This document shows, one piece after another, positions 230-10,833 of a stretch of 11,826 bases of DNA. Where the stretch lies: positions 1-11,826 of the IMG/VR virus record IMGVR_UViG_2917403263_000006; one strand, given 5' to 3'. The position numbers and the translations under genes are program-made. Source of the stretch: a virus. Taxonomy: Duplodnaviria > Heunggongvirae > Uroviricota > Caudoviricetes. Each line of letters begins with the position of its first letter. Position 1 is the stretch's first letter. Below the pieces are notes generated by a model. It worked only from the letters and a program-made list of their open reading frames with translations. It was not told where the DNA came from and did not search any database.

Positions 230-1315
230 CTAACGTTTCAACCAAAGGTCATCTACAGAAAACGAATCGAATTCATTCTCAGATGGAGAATAAATAAAGC
301 TCACTGTAAAATACGGTCTAACCAAAATCTCTAAAGTCACAACGTCACCATCACCATGAGTAAATGGGAATGCCGAATCTAAATCGCTTTTATTTTCAAT
401 ATAATCCAAATAAGGAATATCCACTTCAATAAAAACCCGTCTCAAATTAAAAGAATAGGCAATGTAATATTTATCCGCATCAATTGAAGTGATGCCTTCA
501 ATATAGCCATCCTCGAAATCTTCGATGACATCAACTCTAACATCCAAAACATTCGAAACTCTAGACTCAAAAATATTATTTTCAAGGTATTGACTAAGCA
601 TCATGTGATTAAAACTTGATAAATAATCGATACACTCACCTTCTAGAAACTCCTCGAAATAAGGCTCACTTCTTGCATGATCAAAAGCATGGATACTCTT
701 ATCAATAGATGATGTAACGAAGTCAAATAGCTTCCGATATGGAGTTATTTTTTGTGTTATGCCTAACTCTTCAATATCTCTTAGAAGATCATCATTAAAC
801 GTTGCAGGACCTTTACTGTTGGTAAAAAAGTCTGAGCTATTCTCAGTAATAAATACAAAATCATCATTACCCCCTGATGATTTGATATATTGAAGAAAAG
901 ATAACCAGATCAACGTATCACGGTATCCTTTTTCTTGTTCTGAGAAAGGTTTTATCTTTTCAAGGGCCCTACCAACCACCTTAGCATGTGGAATATCGTT
1001 ATAATCTATTAAAATTAAATTATCAACTTCCTTATTTAATATTTCTTTCAAATCATATTGTTCAATACCTAAGTTTTCAATTTTAAAATCTATTGGATTC
1101 TGATTAAGCTTTTTAATTTTACTAATAATGGAACGCATTTCATTTAATTGATTTTTGAGCTCTCTATTCCTGATATTGTTAGTCTCCTCAATTACTAAAT
1201 TTGATAATAACAAGTCGTTACATTCATTATTCAAAAAATGGAAAAGAAGTTTAAAATTAGCATTTTTAGCAAACCAATTATTGTAAAATATATTTGTATC
1301 CAAAAAAACTTTCAT
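230..1315 (-). CDS. Hypothetical cargo protein with N-terminal PIN-like nuclease domain and about 190-aa C-terminal extension of unknown function
   Basis: 361-codon ORF, ATG at 1315-1313, TAG at 232-230. N-terminus MKVFLDTNIF matches the first acidic motif of PIN domains (hhhDTNhh), with further acidic positions (VIEE, ILIDYND, FVFITENSSDF) at PIN-like spacing. Strongly AT-rich relative to the phage backbone. A TATAAT -10 hexamer lies on the - strand at 1357-1352. Confidence 0.6.
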   Translation of the reverse strand: MKVFLDTNIFYNNWFAKNANFKLLFHFLNNECNDLLLSNLVIEETNNIRNRELKNQLNEMRSIISKIKKLNQNPIDFKIENLGIEQYDLKEILNKEVDNLILIDYNDIPHAKVVGRALEKIKPFSEQEKGYRDTLIWLSFLQYIKSSGGNDDFVFITENSSDFFTNSKGPATFNDDLLRDIEELGITQKITPYRKLFDFVTSSIDKSIHAFDHARSEPYFEEFLEGECIDYLSSFNHMMLSQYLENNIFESRVSNVLDVRVDVIEDFEDGYIEGITSIDADKYYIAYSFNLRRVFIEVDIPYLDYIENKSDLDSAFPFTHGDGDVVTLEILVRPYFTVSFIYSPSENEFDSFSVDDLWLKR

Positions 1316-1396: not shown

Positions 1397-1838
1397 TTTA
1401 AAAGATTGCATTTATGGCAATGTCAAGTATAAAAACAACCACAACATAATGATTGTATATCCAAAGGCCGTCAGTAAATCATAGCAATTATCACTTACAG
1501 GGGATGTGCGATTTTAATCGTTCAGCCGCGCGCTCATATCCCCGCCACGCCTGCCCGCTTTATGTAGCGGTTTTCATGCAGGTGCATGATCTACGCAAAA
1601 TCCCACCAGTTCTGGCGGGCCTTAGCAAAAACGATCCGCAAACGATCATGCGATCTCATGCGGCATAGTCATGCACTTACGGGGGGAACTGAAATCCAGT
1701 AACCGAATGATCGCTTGAAAAACGAAACATACGTACTTACAAAGCACAAAGCCTGCTTTGAGCGAAGCGGACGTTAATAATGTTGCTGACCATCCCTAGT
1801 ACTTCTCATAATATAGCCCTATGTTAATCAACAAAATA

Positions 1839-2669
1839 TTAATTTGTCCCATCACTAAAGAATTTGATTGCGTCAGTTAGTACATAGTCAATGAAAATTT
1901 TTACGTGGAAGACCTGAAAAACGCTATTTTCTGAGTTTTGAATGAAATCTACAGCTATATCTTTTAGGTTGATCAACCAGTTATATTCTTCAATCAGTCT
2001 AGTTCTGGCATCCGCATCAGAATAACGACTCCGTAAGCTAAATGCCAGTTTCCTCATGATAACTGGATCAAGTTTCCTATAGCTTTCAATGAAAACATCA
2101 GCAGGAACTAAGTGTAAAAAAGGTACGTCATGAAGATTTAACTGTCTATTATTAGAATGACTCAATTCAGATAACAACGATGATTTTCCCCTTTGTAACT
2201 CATCTCTGAACTGCAATGCAAATTCCGAAATTGATTCATCAAACCGTTTCTTCCTTGCTATTTTAATATGTTCAATAATGAGCTTAAAGTCATCACTATC
2301 CCTGTCAAGAAAACTTAAACTACGCCATCCCCTTAATTCGTTATAATGCGTTTGCGCATATTCCTTATGTACATCTTCAGCTCTCAGTCTATTATAATAA
2401 TTATTTATATTCTGTTTTGTCTCATTTATGAGATCATGAACATCATCTGTTGTTAGACCTTCTTTCGCCATTTCCAGCAAAATACTCGCTGTCATCAGGA
2501 GTTCACCTAAGGTAGTGATCTTACCTGAAAATAGGTTATCCTTAGCAATAGCGTACTGCTCATAAAGCATAGTTTCATTTAGTTCTCTATAGTTCCACAA
2601 ACACCTCCATGCTGGTGAATCGCTGCTTCTAAAAAAAACGCGTAACATCCAACTGAGCAAGAAGATCAC
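1839..2669 (-). CDS. Hypothetical protein, predicted largely alpha-helical; either a separate partner gene of the upstream NTPase or its C-terminal continuation across a frame break
   Basis: 276-codon ORF (first codon GTG at 2669; internal ATGs at 2648 and 2570 have weak RBS), TAA at 1841-1839. It overlaps the NTPase ORF end by 41 nt, across an A8 run at 2631-2638. Same AT-rich composition as the NTPase ORF. No recognisable catalytic motif. Confidence 0.5.
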   Translation of the reverse strand: MIFLLSWMLRVFFRSSDSPAWRCLWNYRELNETMLYEQYAIAKDNLFSGKITTLGELLMTASILLEMAKEGLTTDDVHDLINETKQNINNYYNRLRAEDVHKEYAQTHYNELRGWRSLSFLDRDSDDFKLIIEHIKIARKKRFDESISEFALQFRDELQRGKSSLLSELSHSNNRQLNLHDVPFLHLVPADVFIESYRKLDPVIMRKLAFSLRSRYSDADARTRLIEEYNWLINLKDIAVDFIQNSENSVFQVFHVKIFIDYVLTDAIKFFSDGTN

Positions 2670-3732
2670 CCGTTACCTTTCCATCACAGATTAGTTCTCT
2701 CCAAGACGCGCCATCCAGTAACTTCTCGGTTAATACAGGAGACGAATATTTCTCGACAATCATGTCATACTTACTTTTGACGCGTTCTTTACCCAAAAAC
2801 ATACCATAATTAACATTGCCGATTGAATTGAAATCCTCGTAGCTAAGATTCCCTCCCCGGTACTCCATCGAAAAAATTAACAATTGATGAAAAAACACCC
2901 TTATAAATTCATCGTTACTTAAATATTTATCTCCCAAAAGGGAAATAATTCGTTGTACATCGAGAAAGAACTGCCTCAAGTGTCTTAGATTATTATAATT
3001 CGCTGACACATAGAGGTCCTCTATTGTCTGCATATCTTCTTTAAATATATTAGCAACATGCAAACTACTAATTACGCTCAAGAAAATCTTACAAGCACTA
3101 TGTAAATCTGACGTTACTTCAAATGTTTTACCTACTAGCTTTTCTTTTGTTCTCATGTATTCATTGCGATATTTCTCATCATCATTATTTATTCGCTTTT
3201 CTCTATTGATTATTTCATCTTCATTGGCAACCAAGATCGCTTTGTATCCGTTTACTTCCACAAAGTGATTTATATATCCAAATAAGATTGGTAAATCTAC
3301 ACCAGCTCTCTCGACATCATCAAAGACCAGCACAAAACCATCTGGTTTTCTAGTAAAGTCGCTAAGATTAATGGTGGGAACATTGCTATTGATATCTACG
3401 TCAGATTTATTATCGCCATTAAGATCGATCTTGAAAGTAGCCTTAAGCGTATTTTTTAGTACATTTGCACCAAAGATAAGGGCTTTGTTTGATAGGACAG
3501 GATGCAATTGACGATAGAACTCATCTTCAATCTGCTCAATAGAGTTGACGCCATACAAGCTCACTTTTAGAAATTTGAACTCTGAATGTTTCTGCTTATA
3601 TTCTTCAAGAACTCGTTCAATGAACCAAGTTTTACCTGATCCCCAAGCACCTTTAAGCATAATGGCGTATTGAGGTTCAGTTTTAAGGCTAAGGTAATAT
3701 TCTATATAGTCTTTGATGTACGTATTGTGCAT
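2629..3732 (-). CDS. P-loop NTPase, KAP-like (Walker A GAWGSGKT near the N-terminus; Walker B-like VLVFDDVER)
   Basis: ORF with ATG at 3732-3730 (the track ORF starts at an upstream TTG at 3783), TAG at 2631-2629. LKGAWGSGKTWFI fits the KAP-family G-x-W-G-S-G-K-S/T P-loop signature; VLVFDDVERAG fits the KAP hhhhDD-x-(D/E)R Walker B pattern. No obvious transmembrane segment. AT-rich. Candidate -10 TATAAT on the - strand at 3847-3842. Confidence 0.65.
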   Translation of the reverse strand: MHNTYIKDYIEYYLSLKTEPQYAIMLKGAWGSGKTWFIERVLEEYKQKHSEFKFLKVSLYGVNSIEQIEDEFYRQLHPVLSNKALIFGANVLKNTLKATFKIDLNGDNKSDVDINSNVPTINLSDFTRKPDGFVLVFDDVERAGVDLPILFGYINHFVEVNGYKAILVANEDEIINREKRINNDDEKYRNEYMRTKEKLVGKTFEVTSDLHSACKIFLSVISSLHVANIFKEDMQTIEDLYVSANYNNLRHLRQFFLDVQRIISLLGDKYLSNDEFIRVFFHQLLIFSMEYRGGNLSYEDFNSIGNVNYGMFLGKERVKSKYDMIVEKYSSPVLTEKLLDGASWRELICDGKVTGDLLAQLDVTRFF

Positions 3733-4053
3733 TTTTAGTCCATTTTTATAAAATACATAAACATAGATGGTAAGTAGAGCCAAAGGCCAACTATGGAAAA
3801 TTCAATCGGTAGTGTACATTGTAAGGTTATTATTGGTAAATATTATAGGAATACCCATAATCTTACAAAATTCAGATTATCCGTTGCAAATTAGTCTGCC
3901 ATTCGTTAATTGACGAAAGATAGCAGAAGAAATGTTCGCTTCTGGCACAAAGCGGACGATCACTTATAAAAATGACCGCCCACCTTACGCCTTATTTCAC
4001 TCATTGCCCAAACTAGCCCCCATCAGAATGAATCCTCCTGGGGGCAACATTTC

Positions 4054-4287
4054 TTAATGCTGCCAGCTGTCGTCTTCCCACACCTTCTGCATAATTTTCA
4101 TCACTTGTTTTCTTTCTTCGTCCAGTTGCAGTCCGGTAAGTTCCACACCGTGAGAGCTACCTTTGCGGATACGAATTACCGTTTTGGGATACAGGGGGCG
4201 CAGATTGCGGTAAAGCTCGGATTCAAGGGCGTCCAGGATAGACTGGCTAATCTTCTGCTCTTTATCGATCATTATTTCAATGCGCAT
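4054..4287 (-). CDS. DinI-family protein; likely the C-terminal DinI-like domain or short product of a Tum-type SOS-inducible antirepressor
   Basis: 77-codon ORF, ATG at 4287-4285 preceded by GGTGA with 5-nt spacer, TAA at 4056-4054. MRIEIMIDKEQ...KIMQKVWEDDSW resembles E. coli DinI (MRIEVTIAK...ILQETWES). The frame is open upstream into the 4298-4486 ORF region. Confidence 0.7.
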   Translation of the reverse strand: MRIEIMIDKEQKISQSILDALESELYRNLRPLYPKTVIRIRKGSSHGVELTGLQLDEERKQVMKIMQKVWEDDSWQH

Positions 4288-4297
4288 AAAAGTCACC

Positions 4298-4486
4298 TCA
4301 ACTGATGACATCCATTGAGCGGTTGTATTCGTGGGTTCTGATTTTTGCCATGAGTTCATCAGTCAATTCAGAAACCCACTGCAAAGCCAGCCCCTTCTCT
4401 TCATCACTACACTCACTAGCCGCTACAAGCTTAAGAAAAAAATCAATGCGCTGGAGCTTCAAAGACTCCAAAAAATAGTCCTGCAT
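4298..4486 (-). CDS. Small ORF (62 codons), probably the N-terminal part of a tum-like antirepressor gene, separated from the DinI-like ORF by a frame break
   Basis: ATG at 4486-4484 preceded by GGAGG (4-nt spacer), TGA at 4300-4298. LexA box 40 bp upstream. Removing one base from the T5 run at 4342-4346 fuses it in frame to the DinI-like ORF, giving about 143 aa, close to the about 146 aa I recall for phage 186 Tum. Confidence 0.5.
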   Translation of the reverse strand: MQDYFLESLKLQRIDFFLKLVAASECSDEEKGLALQWVSELTDELMAKIRTHEYNRSMDVIS

Positions 4487-4526: not shown

Positions 4527-4546
4527 CACTGTTTATATTTACAGTA
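4527..4546. promoter_or_regulatory. LexA operator (SOS box) CACTGTTTATATTTACAGTA upstream of the tum-like operon
   Basis: CTGT-N8-ACAG core at 4529-4544 with AT-rich spacer; 17 of 20 matches to the E. coli consensus TACTGTATATATATACAGTA. It overlaps -10-like hexamers (TATACT, TACAAT on the - strand) about 40-60 bp upstream of the 4486 start. Phage 186 tum is known to be LexA-controlled. Confidence 0.65.
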
Positions 4547-4639: not shown

Positions 4640-6764
4640 TTAATACAGGTTCCGCCACTTATCATCTTCCTGCAAACGCTGGTTCCGATAGAAGATACGC
4701 AGGCCTGCTCCTGACGGAATACTGCCGCCGCGAAGGAGTAAATCGACCTCTTTCTCGCTACCATCAAATCCTCTGGACTTCAGTTCATAGGCGAGCTGCT
4801 GTCGCTGATGGTCTGTAATTCGCTGTTTGTAGTCTTTACGCCGTTTCGGTTTCACCAGGCGTAACCTTGCTGCCAGTTCCCGGCGCTCTTTTTTGCTCAT
4901 ACTGTGCAGGTAATCGTGCAACTCCTTGTCATCCATGCGGGTGATATCCGTTCTGGTATCCCCATCAGCTGATTTGTCTTTCCCTTGTTGGTTCAAATTT
5001 TCAGCAAGGGGACAGTTATTGCCACGAGTCCAAGGGGCGCAAGCGCCCTGGTCGGCTGCCGCCTCCTGAACGTCAACGGCCTTACGAACCATTTTCCACT
5101 TCACGGCATGAGTGCAGATCTTGCCCTCTGCAATGGGTGACCAGATGCCATAAATACGAATGCCGTGATCGCCATAGGCGGTCGGCTCTTCGTTGATTTC
5201 ATAAGCGGTTCTGATCAGGTGATATTTGCGGGGAACCAGTACGCCGCCCTGCTTCATGATGTAGGTGGCAAAACAACCAGCATCAGCAGCAGCCAGGATG
5301 GCATCAAGGCACGGGTTATCCAGTACCGGCGCACCTGCTTTTTTGTCCCCCTGTTGCCTTGCCGCCTGACCAGCCAGCAATCGCAGTTCACGGTAAGCCT
5401 GACGCCCCGGAATGCCAAAGAAGCGGAATTGCTGAACACGATGCAGAGACGCCCAGGCATTAACGTATTCAGCGTTATCACGCAGGGATTTACCCGTTTC
5501 CTTGCTGATCTCGCCAGCCAGACCACGCCCGTCAATGTTCTTACTGATGTATTTCGCGATGTAGCTTGTTGGCGTACCTTTACGCGGGTTAATCAACTCA
5601 GACTTAAAGCGCGGCCCAGTGTTATTGCCCAGCTCCTCGCGGTCTTCACGGATGGCAAACTTACGCAGTAATGCAGTGATGGCGCGGCGGTTCTTTTTTG
5701 TGCATAAAACACAACAGGTGCCAGTGAACTGTACCGTCATGATGCGGCTCAGCCACCCGCACGCCATACCAGCGCAATCCGGCTTTGTGCATCGCCTTAC
5801 GAAATGCAGCAAACATGCCGACCAGATAATCACTGCTTTGTCTTACCGTCGCATTTGTCCAGGTCGGGTTGGGCCTGCCGTTATTTAGCGTGGAATGGAA
5901 ACGTGACGGACAGGTGATGGTGTAGAAAACGGCGCAGTCACCGCGCATTTCCGCGATAAGCTCCAGACCTTTAACACAGGCCATCATCTCATTGCGGCGA
6001 TGCGCAGGGTTGCTGCTGCTGGCGTTTACCACATCCTCCATGTCCAGCGTGTCGCCGTCTTCGTTCACCAGTTCATGAGAACGGAAAAACTCCAGCGACT
6101 TACGGCGCTGCTCACGTTTATGCATCACGGCTTCATAGCTGACATAGGGAGATGCTTTTTTGCTGACCAGGCAAACAGCACGCAACTGCTCTTCCCGCCA
6201 TTCGCAACGCATCTTCCATAATTTCCGGTACCACCAGTCGGCGCACAACATACGTGCCAGCGAACCCGGAATGAGTTCATAGGGCACGGGTTTACGGCGG
6301 TTTCTTTTCCGGCGGAGTTGCTCAAACGCAGGCGGTATGACATCCAGTCGCAGGGTTTCTGCTGCCACCTTTTCCCATGTCTTGCGGATTTCTTCTGGCT
6401 TAACATCATCGGTGGCGTACAAATCACCACAAGCGGCATCAAGACACATGCTCATATGCGCAGCGACAAGAGTAGACAGGCGTTTCACCTGATCCTGACT
6501 CATTTCAGGCAAGTTCAGCAGGCCGTCCAGCCCTTCATGGCTTGCCATAAAGCGAAAAGAAGTGGATAGCTGACTCTCGCGTACATGCTCCAGTCGTTCC
6601 AGACATGGCTTAATCGTCTCACGCAAATAGCGGGAATAAGCCTTTGGCCTGCCCAGGCTGCTGAAGTATTCAATACGTTGCATCAGCGGCTTGCTGATAT
6701 GGGAAGGCTGGGCGTTAACGTCCGCCAGTATGACCATGTCCGGATTAAAAACGCTGCTGCTCAT
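4640..6764 (-). CDS. A: Replication initiation endonuclease gpA (P2/186 gene A, HUH rolling-circle nickase); reading frame is broken at the T6/A6 run 5694-5699 in the sequence as given
   Basis: Two ORFs in frames offset by one (5661-6863 and 4640-5833). The upstream half ends with the HUH motif [15 protein letters not shown]. The downstream half carries the active-site pair [13 protein letters not shown] about 50 residues later, the same spacing as in P2 gpA. Deleting one A restores ...[14 protein letters not shown]... as one protein of about 700 aa. Start is uncertain (ATG 6764, 6737 or 6833; none has a strong RBS). Confidence 0.85.
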
Positions 6765-7056
6765 GCGCCAGCTTTGCCCGGCTAATGAGCTTATCCTGCT
6801 CCATTTCGCGTTGGACAGGATCACGGGATTCATTAAAGAAATAACGCTCCCAGACCTGATCACTCAGTGCCTCGAGGCGCAGTTGTTCCTGCTCGTTATC
6901 GGCAGCGTACAGAGTGATCAGGTTTGAAAGCGCAGAAACCGGCGCAACTTCCGCCGGGTCCAGATAAGGGTTAATAGCCTTTTTCGGGCTGTTCCATGAG
7001 AATGCTGCGGCGGCCTCGTTAAAGCCGCTGCAGTTGTTCATATCAGCATGGCTCAT
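6745..7056 (-). CDS. Hypothetical phage early protein (103 aa)
   Basis: ORF whose ATG overlaps the dam stop in an ATGA stop-start overlap (7053-7056), suggesting translational coupling. No motif recognised. Confidence 0.5.
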
Positions 7057-9725: not shown

Positions 9726-9814
9726 AAGGCAACATTCCTTCTAGATATGGCTTGTGGCGAGCCGTTGTTTGTCGTGATTAGTAGTGAAGGCTCCAAAAGA
9801 ACTCTTCTGGTTCA

Positions 9815-9843
9815 ACTTTAAGATCGCTTTTGGAATCTGTCAA
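9815..9843 (-). promoter_or_regulatory. pR-like early lytic promoter (-35 TTGACA, 17-bp spacer, -10 TAAAGT) firing toward apl
   Basis: On the - strand: TTGACA (9843-9838), 17-nt spacer, TAAAGT (9820-9815); perfect -35, 4 of 6 at -10. It lies inside the 5-prime extension of the long cI ORF (9784-9870), which argues that extension is not coding. Confidence 0.45.
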
Positions 9844-9870
9844 CGATTTTTGGATTTCTCTGGAGGACTC

Positions 9871-10440
9871 GTGGATTTCAATAGCGGTGGTAAGAAGGCC
9901 ATAGAACGTTTGGTTGAAGCATATGGGTTTGGTACCCGTCAGGCTCTCTGTGATCATTTAGGTGTTTCTAAGAGCACCATGGCAACACGCTATATGCGTG
10001 ATATTTTTCCGGCAGATTGGGTAATCCAGTGCGCACTAGAAACAGGCATCTCACTTCATTGGCTTACGACCGGGCATGGTTCAAAGCAAGCATCAGCAAA
10101 AACAAATGCTATAGAAGTAGTAAAATATTTATTGTCTGATGGAGACTTGCAGGAAGACGGGGTTTATATTTTTGATAAGGGATTTCTACCCTCTACGTTT
10201 AAAAATCCTTTTGTAGTCACAGTTAATAATTCTGAATTTATTTGTGATAAAGAATTTGATGATATACGTGATGGTAAATGGGTAATAAGTATTGATGGCG
10301 AAATAACAATCCGCGACATTACTCGTTTACCCGGTGGGAGAATCTTCGTTGAAGGTGGAAACAGAGCCTTCGAGTGTAAGATAGAAGATGTTGAAATAAT
10401 TGGAAAAATTATAAGTTTAACAGTTAAATATGTTAGATAA
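9871..10440 (+). CDS. cI: CI-type immunity repressor (phage 186 CI family)
   Basis: N-terminal segment IERLVEAYGFGTRQALCDHLGVSKSTMATRYMRD...CALETGISLHWLTTG matches the 186 CI DNA-binding domain (LDRICEAYGF...HCALETGANLQWLLTG as I recall it). Start placed at GTG 9871 (GGAGG 4 nt upstream), giving 189 aa against 192 for 186 CI; the track ORF starts at GTG 9784. Confidence 0.75.
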   Translation: MDFNSGGKKAIERLVEAYGFGTRQALCDHLGVSKSTMATRYMRDIFPADWVIQCALETGISLHWLTTGHGSKQASAKTNAIEVVKYLLSDGDLQEDGVYIFDKGFLPSTFKNPFVVTVNNSEFICDKEFDDIRDGKWVISIDGEITIRDITRLPGGRIFVEGGNRAFECKIEDVEIIGKIISLTVKYVR

Positions 10441-10833
10441 TACCGGGGGAAACTATGCTTGGTAAGGTATTTTTTGTGGTTTTATCATGCTCTTTGTTAT
10501 TAAACCCACTAACTACCTATGCTAAAAATTAATCCTTGTTCTGGGAAAAAGGGAGGTGTCTCTCACTGTACCTCCGATGGAAAATTTGTATGCAATGATG
10601 GGGCTATTAGTAAATCCAAAAAAATCTGTACTAAATACTCACGATAAATTTTGCTCTGATATCTGCGCCTAATATAACAATGAGGCGCAGGCTAACCACA
10701 AAAGTTACATACTCACATAACAAAAAATAGCCAACTTCATTATGGCTTCAGTGAGATGTATGGTCGCGGGATCTCATACATTGACACTGGTTATATATAC
10801 AGTAAAAATGCTCTCCACTGGAGGGCATTTTTT

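Follow-up and report, generated by a model that had tools for sequence, protein, structure and literature searches.

The window, by which we mean the whole 11,826-nucleotide stretch of DNA that was analysed, comes from a P2-like prophage of Escherichia sp. E3659, in which a KAP-type NTPase gene forms an AT-rich, self-contained cargo unit at the gpA-gpQ hotspot near cos (Table 1). On one side the cargo meets the phage backbone at orf62 and a DinI-like gene, a boundary that is preceded by a LexA box and whose two genes are also annotated in RefSeq relatives; on the other side it meets the conserved cos region. The initial annotation had described a compositionally foreign block between gene A and cos, and both parts of that description hold: G+C is 0.36 in 1678-4043 versus 0.53 in gene A, and the block lies between the LexA-boxed orf62/DinI-like pair and cos.

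Table 1. Features of the KAP NTPase cargo and its surroundings (positions in the window; blank cell, no entry)
Feature	Position	Strand	Remarks
KAP-type P-loop NTPase gene	1839..3732	-	630 codons after removal of one homopolymer base; PADLOC PDC-S49 member
Frameshift site	2631..2638	-	A8 on + strand, T8 in the gene
Walker A GAWGSGKT, residues 28-35	3628..3651	-	Invariant residues in homologue alignment
Walker B VLVFDDVER, residues 134-142	3307..3333	-	Invariant residues and model strand
Conserved non-hydrophobic insert of ~50 residues (77-128) between Walker A and Walker B strands	3346..3504	-	
C-terminal all-helical half, residues 366-630 (initially annotated as a separate partner ORF)	1842..2636	-	
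Exchangeable cargo module: gene with its own upstream and downstream DNA, 36% G+C	1678..4043	.	
Conserved cos region of P2-like phages	1527..1677	.	cos-like core GGCGTGGCGGGG at 1540-1551(-)
DinI-like gene	4054..4287	-	Pfam DinI 74.9 bits
orf62	4298-4486		With the DinI-like gene and LexA box, backbone boundary upstream of the cargo
LexA box	4528-4546		Ahead of the orf62/DinI-like pair

The edges of the cargo are seen when the window is compared with p10B, a P2-like prophage that holds different cargo: homology between the two is lost from 1677 to 4044. In Edwardsiella and Pantoea rodasii loci, homology to the window spans 3834..1770 and 3961..1761, respectively. Occupancy is variable as well; the KAP gene is present in 46 of 5,426 complete E. 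coli genomes, versus 1,343 that carry the adjacent early region. The cargo replacement and these counts bear out the proposal that the block is exchangeable hotspot cargo. Lying between gene A and the portal gene Q, adjoining cos, the KAP gene falls within the gpA-gpQ hotspot of P2 as that hotspot has been defined, and the hotspot is documented as a home of anti-phage systems (PMC9122126).

The cos block separates the KAP cargo slot from a second cargo slot. Of the P2-like phage records, 95 have some match to it, and in the 15 listed the identity is ~94-95%; it is found again between two cargo genes of strain p10B. In one locus (L006) the gene order is A, orf62, DinI-like, KAP gene, PIN_12 and portal, with the cos-like core placed between the KAP gene and PIN_12; L006 9680-12100 corresponds to 1630-4053 of the window less one T. 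A functional link between the KAP gene and PIN_12 was considered and rejected, since cos separates the two and the neighbour across it varies, being elsewhere RES, a hypothetical gene, or ParA with SIR2. Nor is there a conserved partner on a wider scale: among 80 loci drawn from many phyla, even the most widely shared family of flanking ORFs is found at no more than 5, and the neighbours of the gene differ among Paraburkholderia, Pseudomonas and Edwardsiella, in keeping with the definition of PDC-S49 as a single gene with no obligate partner.

The block had also been credited with promoter elements of its own and a 320-bp leader. A TATAAT does exist at 3842-3847(-), but the hexamer is found at chance frequency in the window (12 seen, 10.5 expected), and a scan for promoter-like sites came up empty on the - strand ahead of the KAP gene. 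In the Edwardsiella copy, homology begins at 3834, just within this hexamer. The leader is no more than the 321 bp that separate the stop codon of the DinI-like gene (4054) from the ATG of the KAP gene (3732).

Is there one gene here or two? As given, the window contains two ORFs, 2629-3783(-) and 1839-2669(-), both of which the initial annotation reported correctly and read as an NTPase with a tightly overlapping 276-codon partner. We are as good as certain that the block is instead one 630-codon gene. The two ORFs map to successive parts of the PDC-S49 models (profile 3-349 and 360-614), and deletion of one T from the T8 run yields an uninterrupted 630-aa ORF, the translation of which is 100% identical to P0001, the "NTPase KAP" of Escherichia sp. 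E3659. The supposed partner consists of the C-terminal 265 codons of the KAP gene, preceded by 11 codons that read the N-terminal part out of frame; at the other end, homologues begin at ATG 3732, the TTG start at 3783 being a mechanical ORF call. A 41-nt overlap of ORFs on the same strand would fit a genuine operon, in which a 384-aa KAP NTPase is translationally coupled to a 276-aa helical partner, yet such an operon is barely conceivable in light of the profile mapping, the out-of-frame start of the partner and the alignments. At the frameshift site, which was compared through alignments to KE47, NGF1, SFE8 and loci L006 and L007, two other assemblies of the same element and the three aligned E. 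coli alleles are one base shorter and contain a single 630-aa ORF; in KE47, NGF1 and SFE8, the three E. coli loci inspected, one intact gene of 1893 nt is annotated. The ten E. coli matches listed, of 46, likewise all span 100 nt for 101 query bases, i.e. without the extra base, and nearly all of the best 150 family representatives align in a single collinear stretch. The two-gene reading is rejected on the strength of the profile mapping and the alignments. In other words, one gene has been split by one base, so the two-gene abortive-infection architecture proposed for the locus, an artefact of one homopolymer insertion, has no application here.

What the extra base represents is a separate question, and very likely this copy of the sequence is in error at that point and the base has no biological meaning. 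Across its 11,826 nt the window differs from GCA_005781135.1 and from the Logan assembly of SRR8835201 by 8 indels and not a single mismatch. Each indel falls in or next to a single-base run of 2 to 8 bases, and seven of the eight are +1. The combination of no substitutions with length changes in single-base runs only is the usual signature of homopolymer-length miscalls, which is why error is favoured. Besides the KAP gene, the indels disrupt gene A at two points and also interrupt portal, integrase and a ydcA-like gene; some are intergenic. Cryptic P2-like remnants are common, and frameshifts in five genes within 11.8 kb could be taken for a decaying prophage in which the KAP gene, gene A, portal and integrase are real pseudogenes of the sequenced strain. 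We think this unlikely, given eight indels with zero substitutions, each a length change at a short single-base run, and given that comparison with the two other assemblies, in which the genes are intact, reveals no nonsense mutations, deletions or IS elements in the window. One might alternatively imagine the T7/T8 run as a slippage tract that switches a costly defence gene on and off, be it by phase variation, transcriptional slippage or +1 ribosomal frameshifting; long A/T runs can make RNA polymerase slip, and the coding strand of this allele, with a run of 7 in both other assemblies, has T7 where the E. coli alleles have A then T6. This idea is highly improbable: the window has like indels at seven further places unrelated to this one, some of them intergenic, the tract is not kept in the family, the E. 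coli alleles interrupt the run, and no off-state copies are seen among the 10 listed of 46 E. coli matches. A sequence error remains our reading of the extra base, and the case carries a warning. A one-base homopolymer error made one gene look like an NTPase-plus-partner operon, and seven further such errors in the window mean that the ORFs of this contig should be interpreted only alongside a comparison that allows for frameshifts.

The assignment of the protein as a KAP-type P-loop NTPase stands. The N-terminal ORF scores 75.2 bits against Pfam KAP_NTPase (PF07693; cut-off 20), covering profile positions 3-290 of 293, and both motifs that had been reported, GAWGSGKT and VLVFDDVER, are located and intact. 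In an alignment of 64 homologues, down to 26% identity, residues G28, W30, G31, G33 and K34 of Walker A and F137, D138, D139, E141 and R142 of Walker B are invariant. The structural model has a five-stranded P-loop core, in which Walker B forms strand E133-138, and the invariant Walker residues together with this core point to an active NTPase. KAP proteins typically have transmembrane helices within the NTPase domain; the window protein has in that place the hydrophilic insert 77-128, and no transmembrane segment was found, as had been claimed (highest Kyte-Doolittle 19-residue mean, 1.44). The insert is conserved, with H77, P78, L80, K83 and D103 invariant in the 64 homologues; it has a pLDDT below 50 for residues 79-128 of the predicted structure and no hydrophobic peak.

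The best Foldseek matches of the structural model are ORC/Cdc6, RuvB, RFC, NLRP9 and RdrA; a search with the full model returns only generic AAA+/STAND matches (E ~1e-3, TM 0.2-0.3), and no enzyme fold matches the C-terminal helical half. Searches of the PDB by phmmer and with the family profile gave only noise at E>=0.09, no NCBIfam family matched, and no nuclease, protease, TIR, SIR2 or membrane domain was found in the KAP protein. Both halves have a dN/dS of 0.17-0.45, and dN of the C-terminal half is about 1.6-2.6 times that of the N-terminal half. Among the E3659, NGF1 and Edwardsiella alleles, identity is 75-88%.

The family to which this protein belongs is already known and is catalogued as a defence candidate, and to that extent the novelty of the locus was overstated. 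Profile searches confirm KAP_NTPase, but both ORFs fall into one candidate family, PADLOC PDC-S49: the repaired protein scores 521, 495 and 292 bits against its three models, over profile positions 5-614 of 624, and it also matches PHROG 4740 (208 bits over 1-600). In Table S5B of Rousset et al. 2022 (PMC9122126), 'KAP_NTPase' is the 8th commonest system of the P2 hotspot, present in 306 of 18,150 E. coli P2 hotspot loci, and the protein given there starts MHNTYIKDYIEYYLSLKTEPQYAIMLKGAWGSGKTWF, the same as the window protein. Layout (a single gene) and locus are the same for PDC-S49, PHROG 4740 and this KAP_NTPase, with no structural difference from the window gene. At E<=1e-30 the family comprises 888 cluster representatives from Proteobacteria, Cyanobacteria, Bacteroidota and other phyla, and nearly all of the best 150 are 580-700 aa long. 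In a phage collection of 50,697 records there was no close relative, only three partial matches at 25-36% identity. We found no experimental test, phenotype, mechanism or structure of the PDC-S49 family in the literature, 'PDC-S49' and the RefSeq accessions appear in no paper of the searchable literature, and the KAP protein is not among the available cloned-system sequences of Rousset et al. 2022. An abundant family has, in other words, been listed twice as candidate defence with no test that we could find, and in this respect the initial annotation was right to see a plausible anti-phage gene lacking experimental characterisation.

What, then, is the cargo for? By analogy with validated KAP defences and from its genomic context, the KAP gene is probably a stand-alone, prophage-encoded anti-phage defence gene, and the explanation that we favour as a whole, with about the same confidence, is that of a single soluble 630-aa KAP NTPase, cargo of the PDC-S49 family, with a likely anti-phage role. 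Thus, the initial annotation is partly confirmed in what it observed and partly supported in how it was interpreted. An intact single gene could have some other accessory role, such as counter-defence, conflict with helpers or satellites, or host physiology, and this we hold to be a minor but real possibility. Of the 8 further P2 hotspot systems that Rousset et al. cloned, only 3 were active (PMC9122126), the window protein has no recognisable effector fold, no phenotype was found for the PDC-S49 family, and the Paraburkholderia copy sits by two-partner-secretion (ShlB/TPS haemagglutinin-type) genes, outside any defence island. Against such a role stand the PADLOC listing of the family as a defence candidate, the presence of the gene in a validated hotspot and in prophage accessory regions, and the protection afforded in E. 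coli by Reve and in E. faecalis by each of the four KAP-NTPase fusion proteins that were tried there. Function is transferred from these validated KAP defences by analogy, because only the NTPase module is held in common.

If the gene is indeed for defence, how might its product act? We tentatively propose a switch-and-sensor mechanism. The N-terminal AAA+/STAND-like NTPase (residues 1 to ~300), in which Walker A, Walker B and other polar residues are invariant, would be a nucleotide-driven switch. Specificity would come from the C-terminal helical half (~320-630), which evolves faster and would sense some component of the phage; on binding or hydrolysing NTP, the protein would undergo a conformational or oligomeric change by which infection is blocked. 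No enzyme fold was found in the helical half to account for the putative effector step. It is conceivable, and we put it no higher, that PDC-S49 proteins are genuine anti-phage systems, each acting alone, and that their C-terminal helical half represents a sensor or effector of a new kind. If this were true, a soluble KAP NTPase would halt infection with no recognisable nuclease, NADase, protease or membrane domain, for instance by using NTP to trap a phage protein or by hydrolysing NTP without restraint, and no uncharacterised single-gene system in the E. coli P2 hotspot would be commoner than PDC-S49.

Comparison with known systems begins with PADLOC, in which the matches are to PDC-S49 and otherwise only to PifA and PDC-S20 at noise level; component profiles of OLD, PARIS, Gabija, Septu, retrons and Tmn gave no match, in agreement with the initial exclusion of the first five. 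STAND/Avs (AVAST) and Tmn (YobI family) proteins resemble the window protein in having a P-loop switch and a sensor domain, both of them putative in the window protein, and NACHT, NB-ARC and nSTAND6 give weak matches, all below Pfam cut-offs, alongside the Foldseek match to NLRP9. In STAND/Avs proteins an N-terminal effector precedes a NACHT/NB-ARC-type NTPase and a C-terminal repeat sensor, whereas Walker A here is at residue 28 and the NTPase starts from residue 1, leaving the protein without an N-terminal effector. No PADLOC Avs or Tmn model matches it, it has no Tmn-type transmembrane helices, and it is not a member of these groups. PifA of the F plasmid, as portrayed in the passages on it in PMC13001434 and PMC13552941, is a KAP-family protein without transmembrane helices that excludes T7; the likeness is that of a transmembrane-free KAP-fold NTPase on a mobile element, phage exclusion being PifA's own feature. 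PifA differs in family, in size and in its C-terminal part: its PADLOC model reaches 15.4 bits over the P-loop only (residues 36-68 of the TTG-started ORF) and does not match the full-length repaired protein at E<=0.01.

More recently, EF_KAP and three metagenomic KAP proteins with uncharacterised C-terminal regions were reported to protect against phage (PLoS Biol 2026, PMC13552941). Going by its description, EF_KAP is like the window protein in being a single protein that joins a KAP NTPase to a C-terminal region of ~300 residues with no known domain; neither its Walker B motif nor its C-terminal region is dispensable for defence, which is reported to be non-abortive (PMC13552941). EF_KAP has two transmembrane helices, one of them inside the NTPase domain, whereas the window protein has none, and the hosts of EF_KAP-type proteins are Firmicutes.

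Reve, a single-gene KAP-like NTPase of a P4 satellite hotspot (plasmid pFD425; NAR 2026, PMC13586616), offers a further parallel. Reve too is one protein, of 586 aa as against 630 aa, with its NTPase at the extreme N-terminus, the motifs GxWGxGKT(W/F)F and hhhhDDxER in common, and a long, largely helical C-terminal part with no annotated domain; it too adjoins cos on a P2/P4-family element, its top Foldseek matches are also ORC, and its best PADLOC match is PDC-S49. The homology is confined to the NTPase module, however. With the Reve sequence taken from Dataset E1 of the preprint, Reve scores 29 bits against the family profile and 41 bits against PDLC05031 over residues 22-277, BLASTP aligns only Reve residues 22-67 (37 bits), and the C-terminal part of Reve shows no significant similarity to the family by BLASTP or family HMM. 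Reve is therefore rejected as a member of the same family. The measured phenotype likewise belongs to Reve, which lowers plaque counts ~40- to 400,000-fold on the seven Drexlerviridae shown (PMC13586616), and none was found for the PDC-S49 family. Single-protein KAP NTPases were shown to be anti-phage only in 2025-2026, with no mechanism established, and a transmembrane-free, easily cloned member from E. coli would be a convenient model for them: an incremental opportunity, rather than a discovery made here.

The two ORFs present in the window at 2629-3783(-) and 1839-2669(-), which the initial annotation had taken for an NTPase and its partner, are two halves of one gene. Both motifs claimed, GAWGSGKT and VLVFDDVER, are present, and profile searches (Pfam, PADLOC) confirmed KAP_NTPase for the first ORF (75.2 bits; cut-off 20) and assigned both ORFs to the catalogued candidate PDC-S49; the second ORF has no match in Pfam. 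The ORFs match the same three PADLOC models of this single-gene candidate and cover consecutive stretches of its profile (3-349 and 360-614 of ~620 positions), and are therefore halves of a single protein. E. coli KE47, NGF1 and SFE8 each have, at the same locus, a single gene of 1893 nt annotated as a 'P-loop NTPase fold protein', and alignment to relatives leaves the window with a single extra base inside a homopolymer (CGTTTTTTTTAG in the window, CGATTTTTTAG in relatives); 10 of the 10 E. coli matches listed around this site, from 46 complete genomes with the gene, lack one base relative to the window. Removal of one T gives an open 630-codon ORF with its ATG at 3732, the product of which is 100% identical to P0001, 'NTPase KAP [Escherichia sp. 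E3659]'. We rejected the TTG start at 3783, which mechanical ORF calling had produced as an artefact. The 'NTPase plus partner' architecture was thus a product of a one-base homopolymer insertion, as the profile halves, the alignments and the repaired ORF agree.

Does the extra base reflect decay of the gene or an error in the record? Against GCA_005781135.1, the source of P0001 (Escherichia sp. E3659, VATQ01000003.1), and the Logan assembly of SRR8835201, which is independent of it, the full 11,826-nt window has 0 mismatches and 8 indels, all of them length changes in or beside short single-base runs of 2 to 8 bases (seven +1, one -2). Between them they break the reading frames of the portal gene, the KAP gene, gene A (now three ORFs), the ydcA-like gene and the integrase. 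Because zero substitutions accompany eight homopolymer-length changes, the sequence comparison argues strongly for a sequencing or assembly error, and decay of the KAP gene appears improbable. Given the eight indels, ORF-based readings of this contig are unreliable.

Features of the window and positions of the eight indels
Feature	Position	Strand	Remark
Integrase	10756 onwards		
CI repressor	9784-10440		
CII-like gene, Dam methylase, TraR-like gene			in window
Replication gene A	4640-7056	-	
LexA box	4528-4546		perfect LexA-box-like palindrome TACTGTAAATATAAACAGT, in front of 62-codon ORF (orf62) and DinI-like gene
DinI-like gene	4054-4287	-	
AT-rich block with KAP gene	1678-4043		
Insert between Walker A and Walker B strands	3346-3504	-	residues 77-128
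cos-like core GGCGTGGCGGGG	1540-1551	-	inside 151-bp segment 1527-1677
Second AT-rich ORF, PIN_12 domain	230-1315	-	
Portal gene, 3' end			present in window
Indel	42		portal gene
Indel	1686		intergenic
Indel	2638		KAP gene
Indel	4580		intergenic
Indel	5692		gene A
Indel	6751		gene A
Indel	10532		ydcA-like gene
Indel	11642		integrase

The window represents the early/lysogeny end of a P2/186-like prophage. Gene order, LexA box and cos-like core uphold the proposed placement of the KAP block in the gene A-to-cos accessory hotspot beside an SOS-controlled DinI/Tum-like unit, and the block is compositionally foreign, as had been suggested (G+C of 0.36, and 0.31 in the PIN_12 ORF, vs 0.53 in gene A). 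The KAP gene lies 321 bp downstream of the LexA-controlled orf62/DinI-like pair; a second LexA-like box, with one mismatch, occurs at 10786-10804 on the - strand at the integrase ORF start. Although the TATAAT proposed as a promoter element exists at 3842-3847, the hexamer occurs in the window at chance frequency, and a scan for promoter-like sites upstream of the KAP gene found none on its strand.

The 151-bp segment recurs in P2-like phage records: a 523-bp query matches 95 records, and the 15 listed with alignments all align there at ~94-95%. The same block also separates both cargo genes of E. coli p10B, and it divides the gpA-gpQ hotspot in two, giving slots whose cargo can be exchanged independently. 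In p10B (L005 2458-5505) these slots hold a DUF2971 protein and a 557-aa hypothetical protein, in SFE8 (L003 3208-5084) SIR2 and a ParA-family protein, and KE47 carries a RES-domain protein between cos and Q. Here, the second slot, which runs from cos to portal gene Q, holds a PIN_12/DUF4935 protein (361 aa, 31% G+C) with no match in PADLOC, NCBIfam or PHROG; none of 5,426 complete E. coli genomes contains its gene. Homologues number 174, and almost all of the 120 listed are ~345-390 aa long; both PIN_12-only and 'KAP_NTPase + PIN_12' arrangements are listed in Table S5A of Rousset et al. 2022 (PMC9122126). We regard it as an uncharacterised candidate in its own right, which might act in defence as a PIN RNase.

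Within its defence hotspot, the KAP gene is a mobile cargo that has no partner gene. It is found in 46 of 5,426 complete E. coli genomes, the adjacent early region in 1,343, and in a P2-like prophage with different cargo the homology to the window is gone between 1677 and 4044; the cassette thus brings its own flanking DNA. DNA is common to the window over 3834..1770 in Edwardsiella and 3961..1761 in Pantoea rodasii, at ~81-82% identity, and these cassettes carry 100-230 bp of their own upstream DNA and therefore move as a unit between unrelated phage backbones. The Edwardsiella tarda copy (L010 8001-9893) lies in a lambdoid prophage accessory region beside a DUF2971 gene, a Pseudomonas copy in a small island with a resolvase, and a Paraburkholderia copy adjoins two-partner-secretion genes. 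Across cos, relatives have a RES protein, a hypothetical protein, ParA+SIR2 or PIN_12, and in 80 loci of many phyla searched for a partner gene no flanking ORF family is common to more than five.

The gene product is one soluble protein with invariant NTPase catalytic residues. Its family comprises 888 representatives (50%-identity clusters, E<=1e-30), of which nearly all of the best 150 have a length of 580-700 aa and align over a single collinear stretch; relatives are encoded in 295 matched stretches (one genome per species, 185,579 species) from Gammaproteobacteria, Betaproteobacteria, Cyanobacteria, Bacteroidota, Desulfobacterota and others. Among 64 homologues, down to 26% identity, Walker A G28, W30, G31, G33 and K34, Walker B D138, D139, E141 and R142, and N155, E159, N248, R250, E290, W375, R569 and E582 are invariant. 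Both halves are under purifying selection (dN/dS 0.17-0.45), with non-synonymous change ~1.6-2.6 times higher in the C-terminal half, which is helical and evolves faster than the NTPase half. The AF2 model (pLDDT 82.9) gives the NTPase domain a five-stranded P-loop core and a helical lid; the insert at residues 77-128 is strongly conserved, hydrophilic, lysine-rich and modelled at low confidence (pLDDT < 50). Foldseek matches in the PDB were generic AAA+/STAND relatives only (ORC/Cdc6, RuvB, RFC, NLRP9, RdrA; E ~1e-3). Classical KAP NTPases reportedly, in the 2004 account of Aravind et al., carry transmembrane helices inside the NTPase domain; none was found in the repaired 630-aa sequence, as the initial annotation had held.

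A defence function is probable. STAND and KAP defences suggest, by analogy, that the C-terminal half might recognise a phage component, upon which nucleotide binding or hydrolysis would switch the protein to an active and probably oligomeric form able to block infection; we offer this mechanism tentatively and think it rather doubtful. No effector fold that would account for the block is visible in the protein.

The KAP gene belongs to an already catalogued candidate defence family. In P2-like phages, the cos-proximal gpA-gpQ region was defined as a hotspot of defence by Rousset et al. 2022 (PMC9122126), who list 'KAP_NTPase', without functional note, as its 8th most frequent system (306 loci; Table S5B, protein starting MHNTYIKDYIEYYLSLKTEPQYAIMLKGAWGSGKTWF), with the KE47 and NGF1 proteins by accession in Table S5A; the protein was not found among the cloned-system sequences available for that study. 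In PADLOC-DB v2 it is candidate PDC-S49 (521 bits, full length) and in PHROGs family 4740, function unknown; NCBIfam has no model, and the searchable literature yielded no mention of 'PDC-S49' or the RefSeq accessions. What remains of value is an abundant P2 hotspot gene that has apparently never been tested.

How does this protein compare with systems that have been? It matches no Pfam or PADLOC profile of Tmn, Avs/STAND, OLD, PARIS, Gabija, Septu or retron, in keeping with the initial exclusion of the last five. For PifA, the F-plasmid KAP protein that likewise lacks transmembrane helices, the match is confined to the P-loop (15 bits). Reve, a KAP-like NTPase encoded by one gene in a P4 hotspot, protects strongly against Drexlerviridae (NAR 2026, PMC13586616); its sequence (586 aa, from Dataset E1 of the preprint) has PDC-S49 as best PADLOC match (41 bits, NTPase only), and the two proteins have N-terminal NTPase motifs in common, whereas beyond the NTPase similarity is not detectable. 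EF_KAP has two transmembrane helices and the PDC-S49 protein none; EF_KAP and its relatives, single proteins that join a KAP NTPase to a C-terminal region whose fold is unknown, confer protection on E. faecalis, and EF_KAP requires both its Walker B motif and its C-terminal region for an action that is non-abortive (PLoS Biology 2026, PMC13552941).
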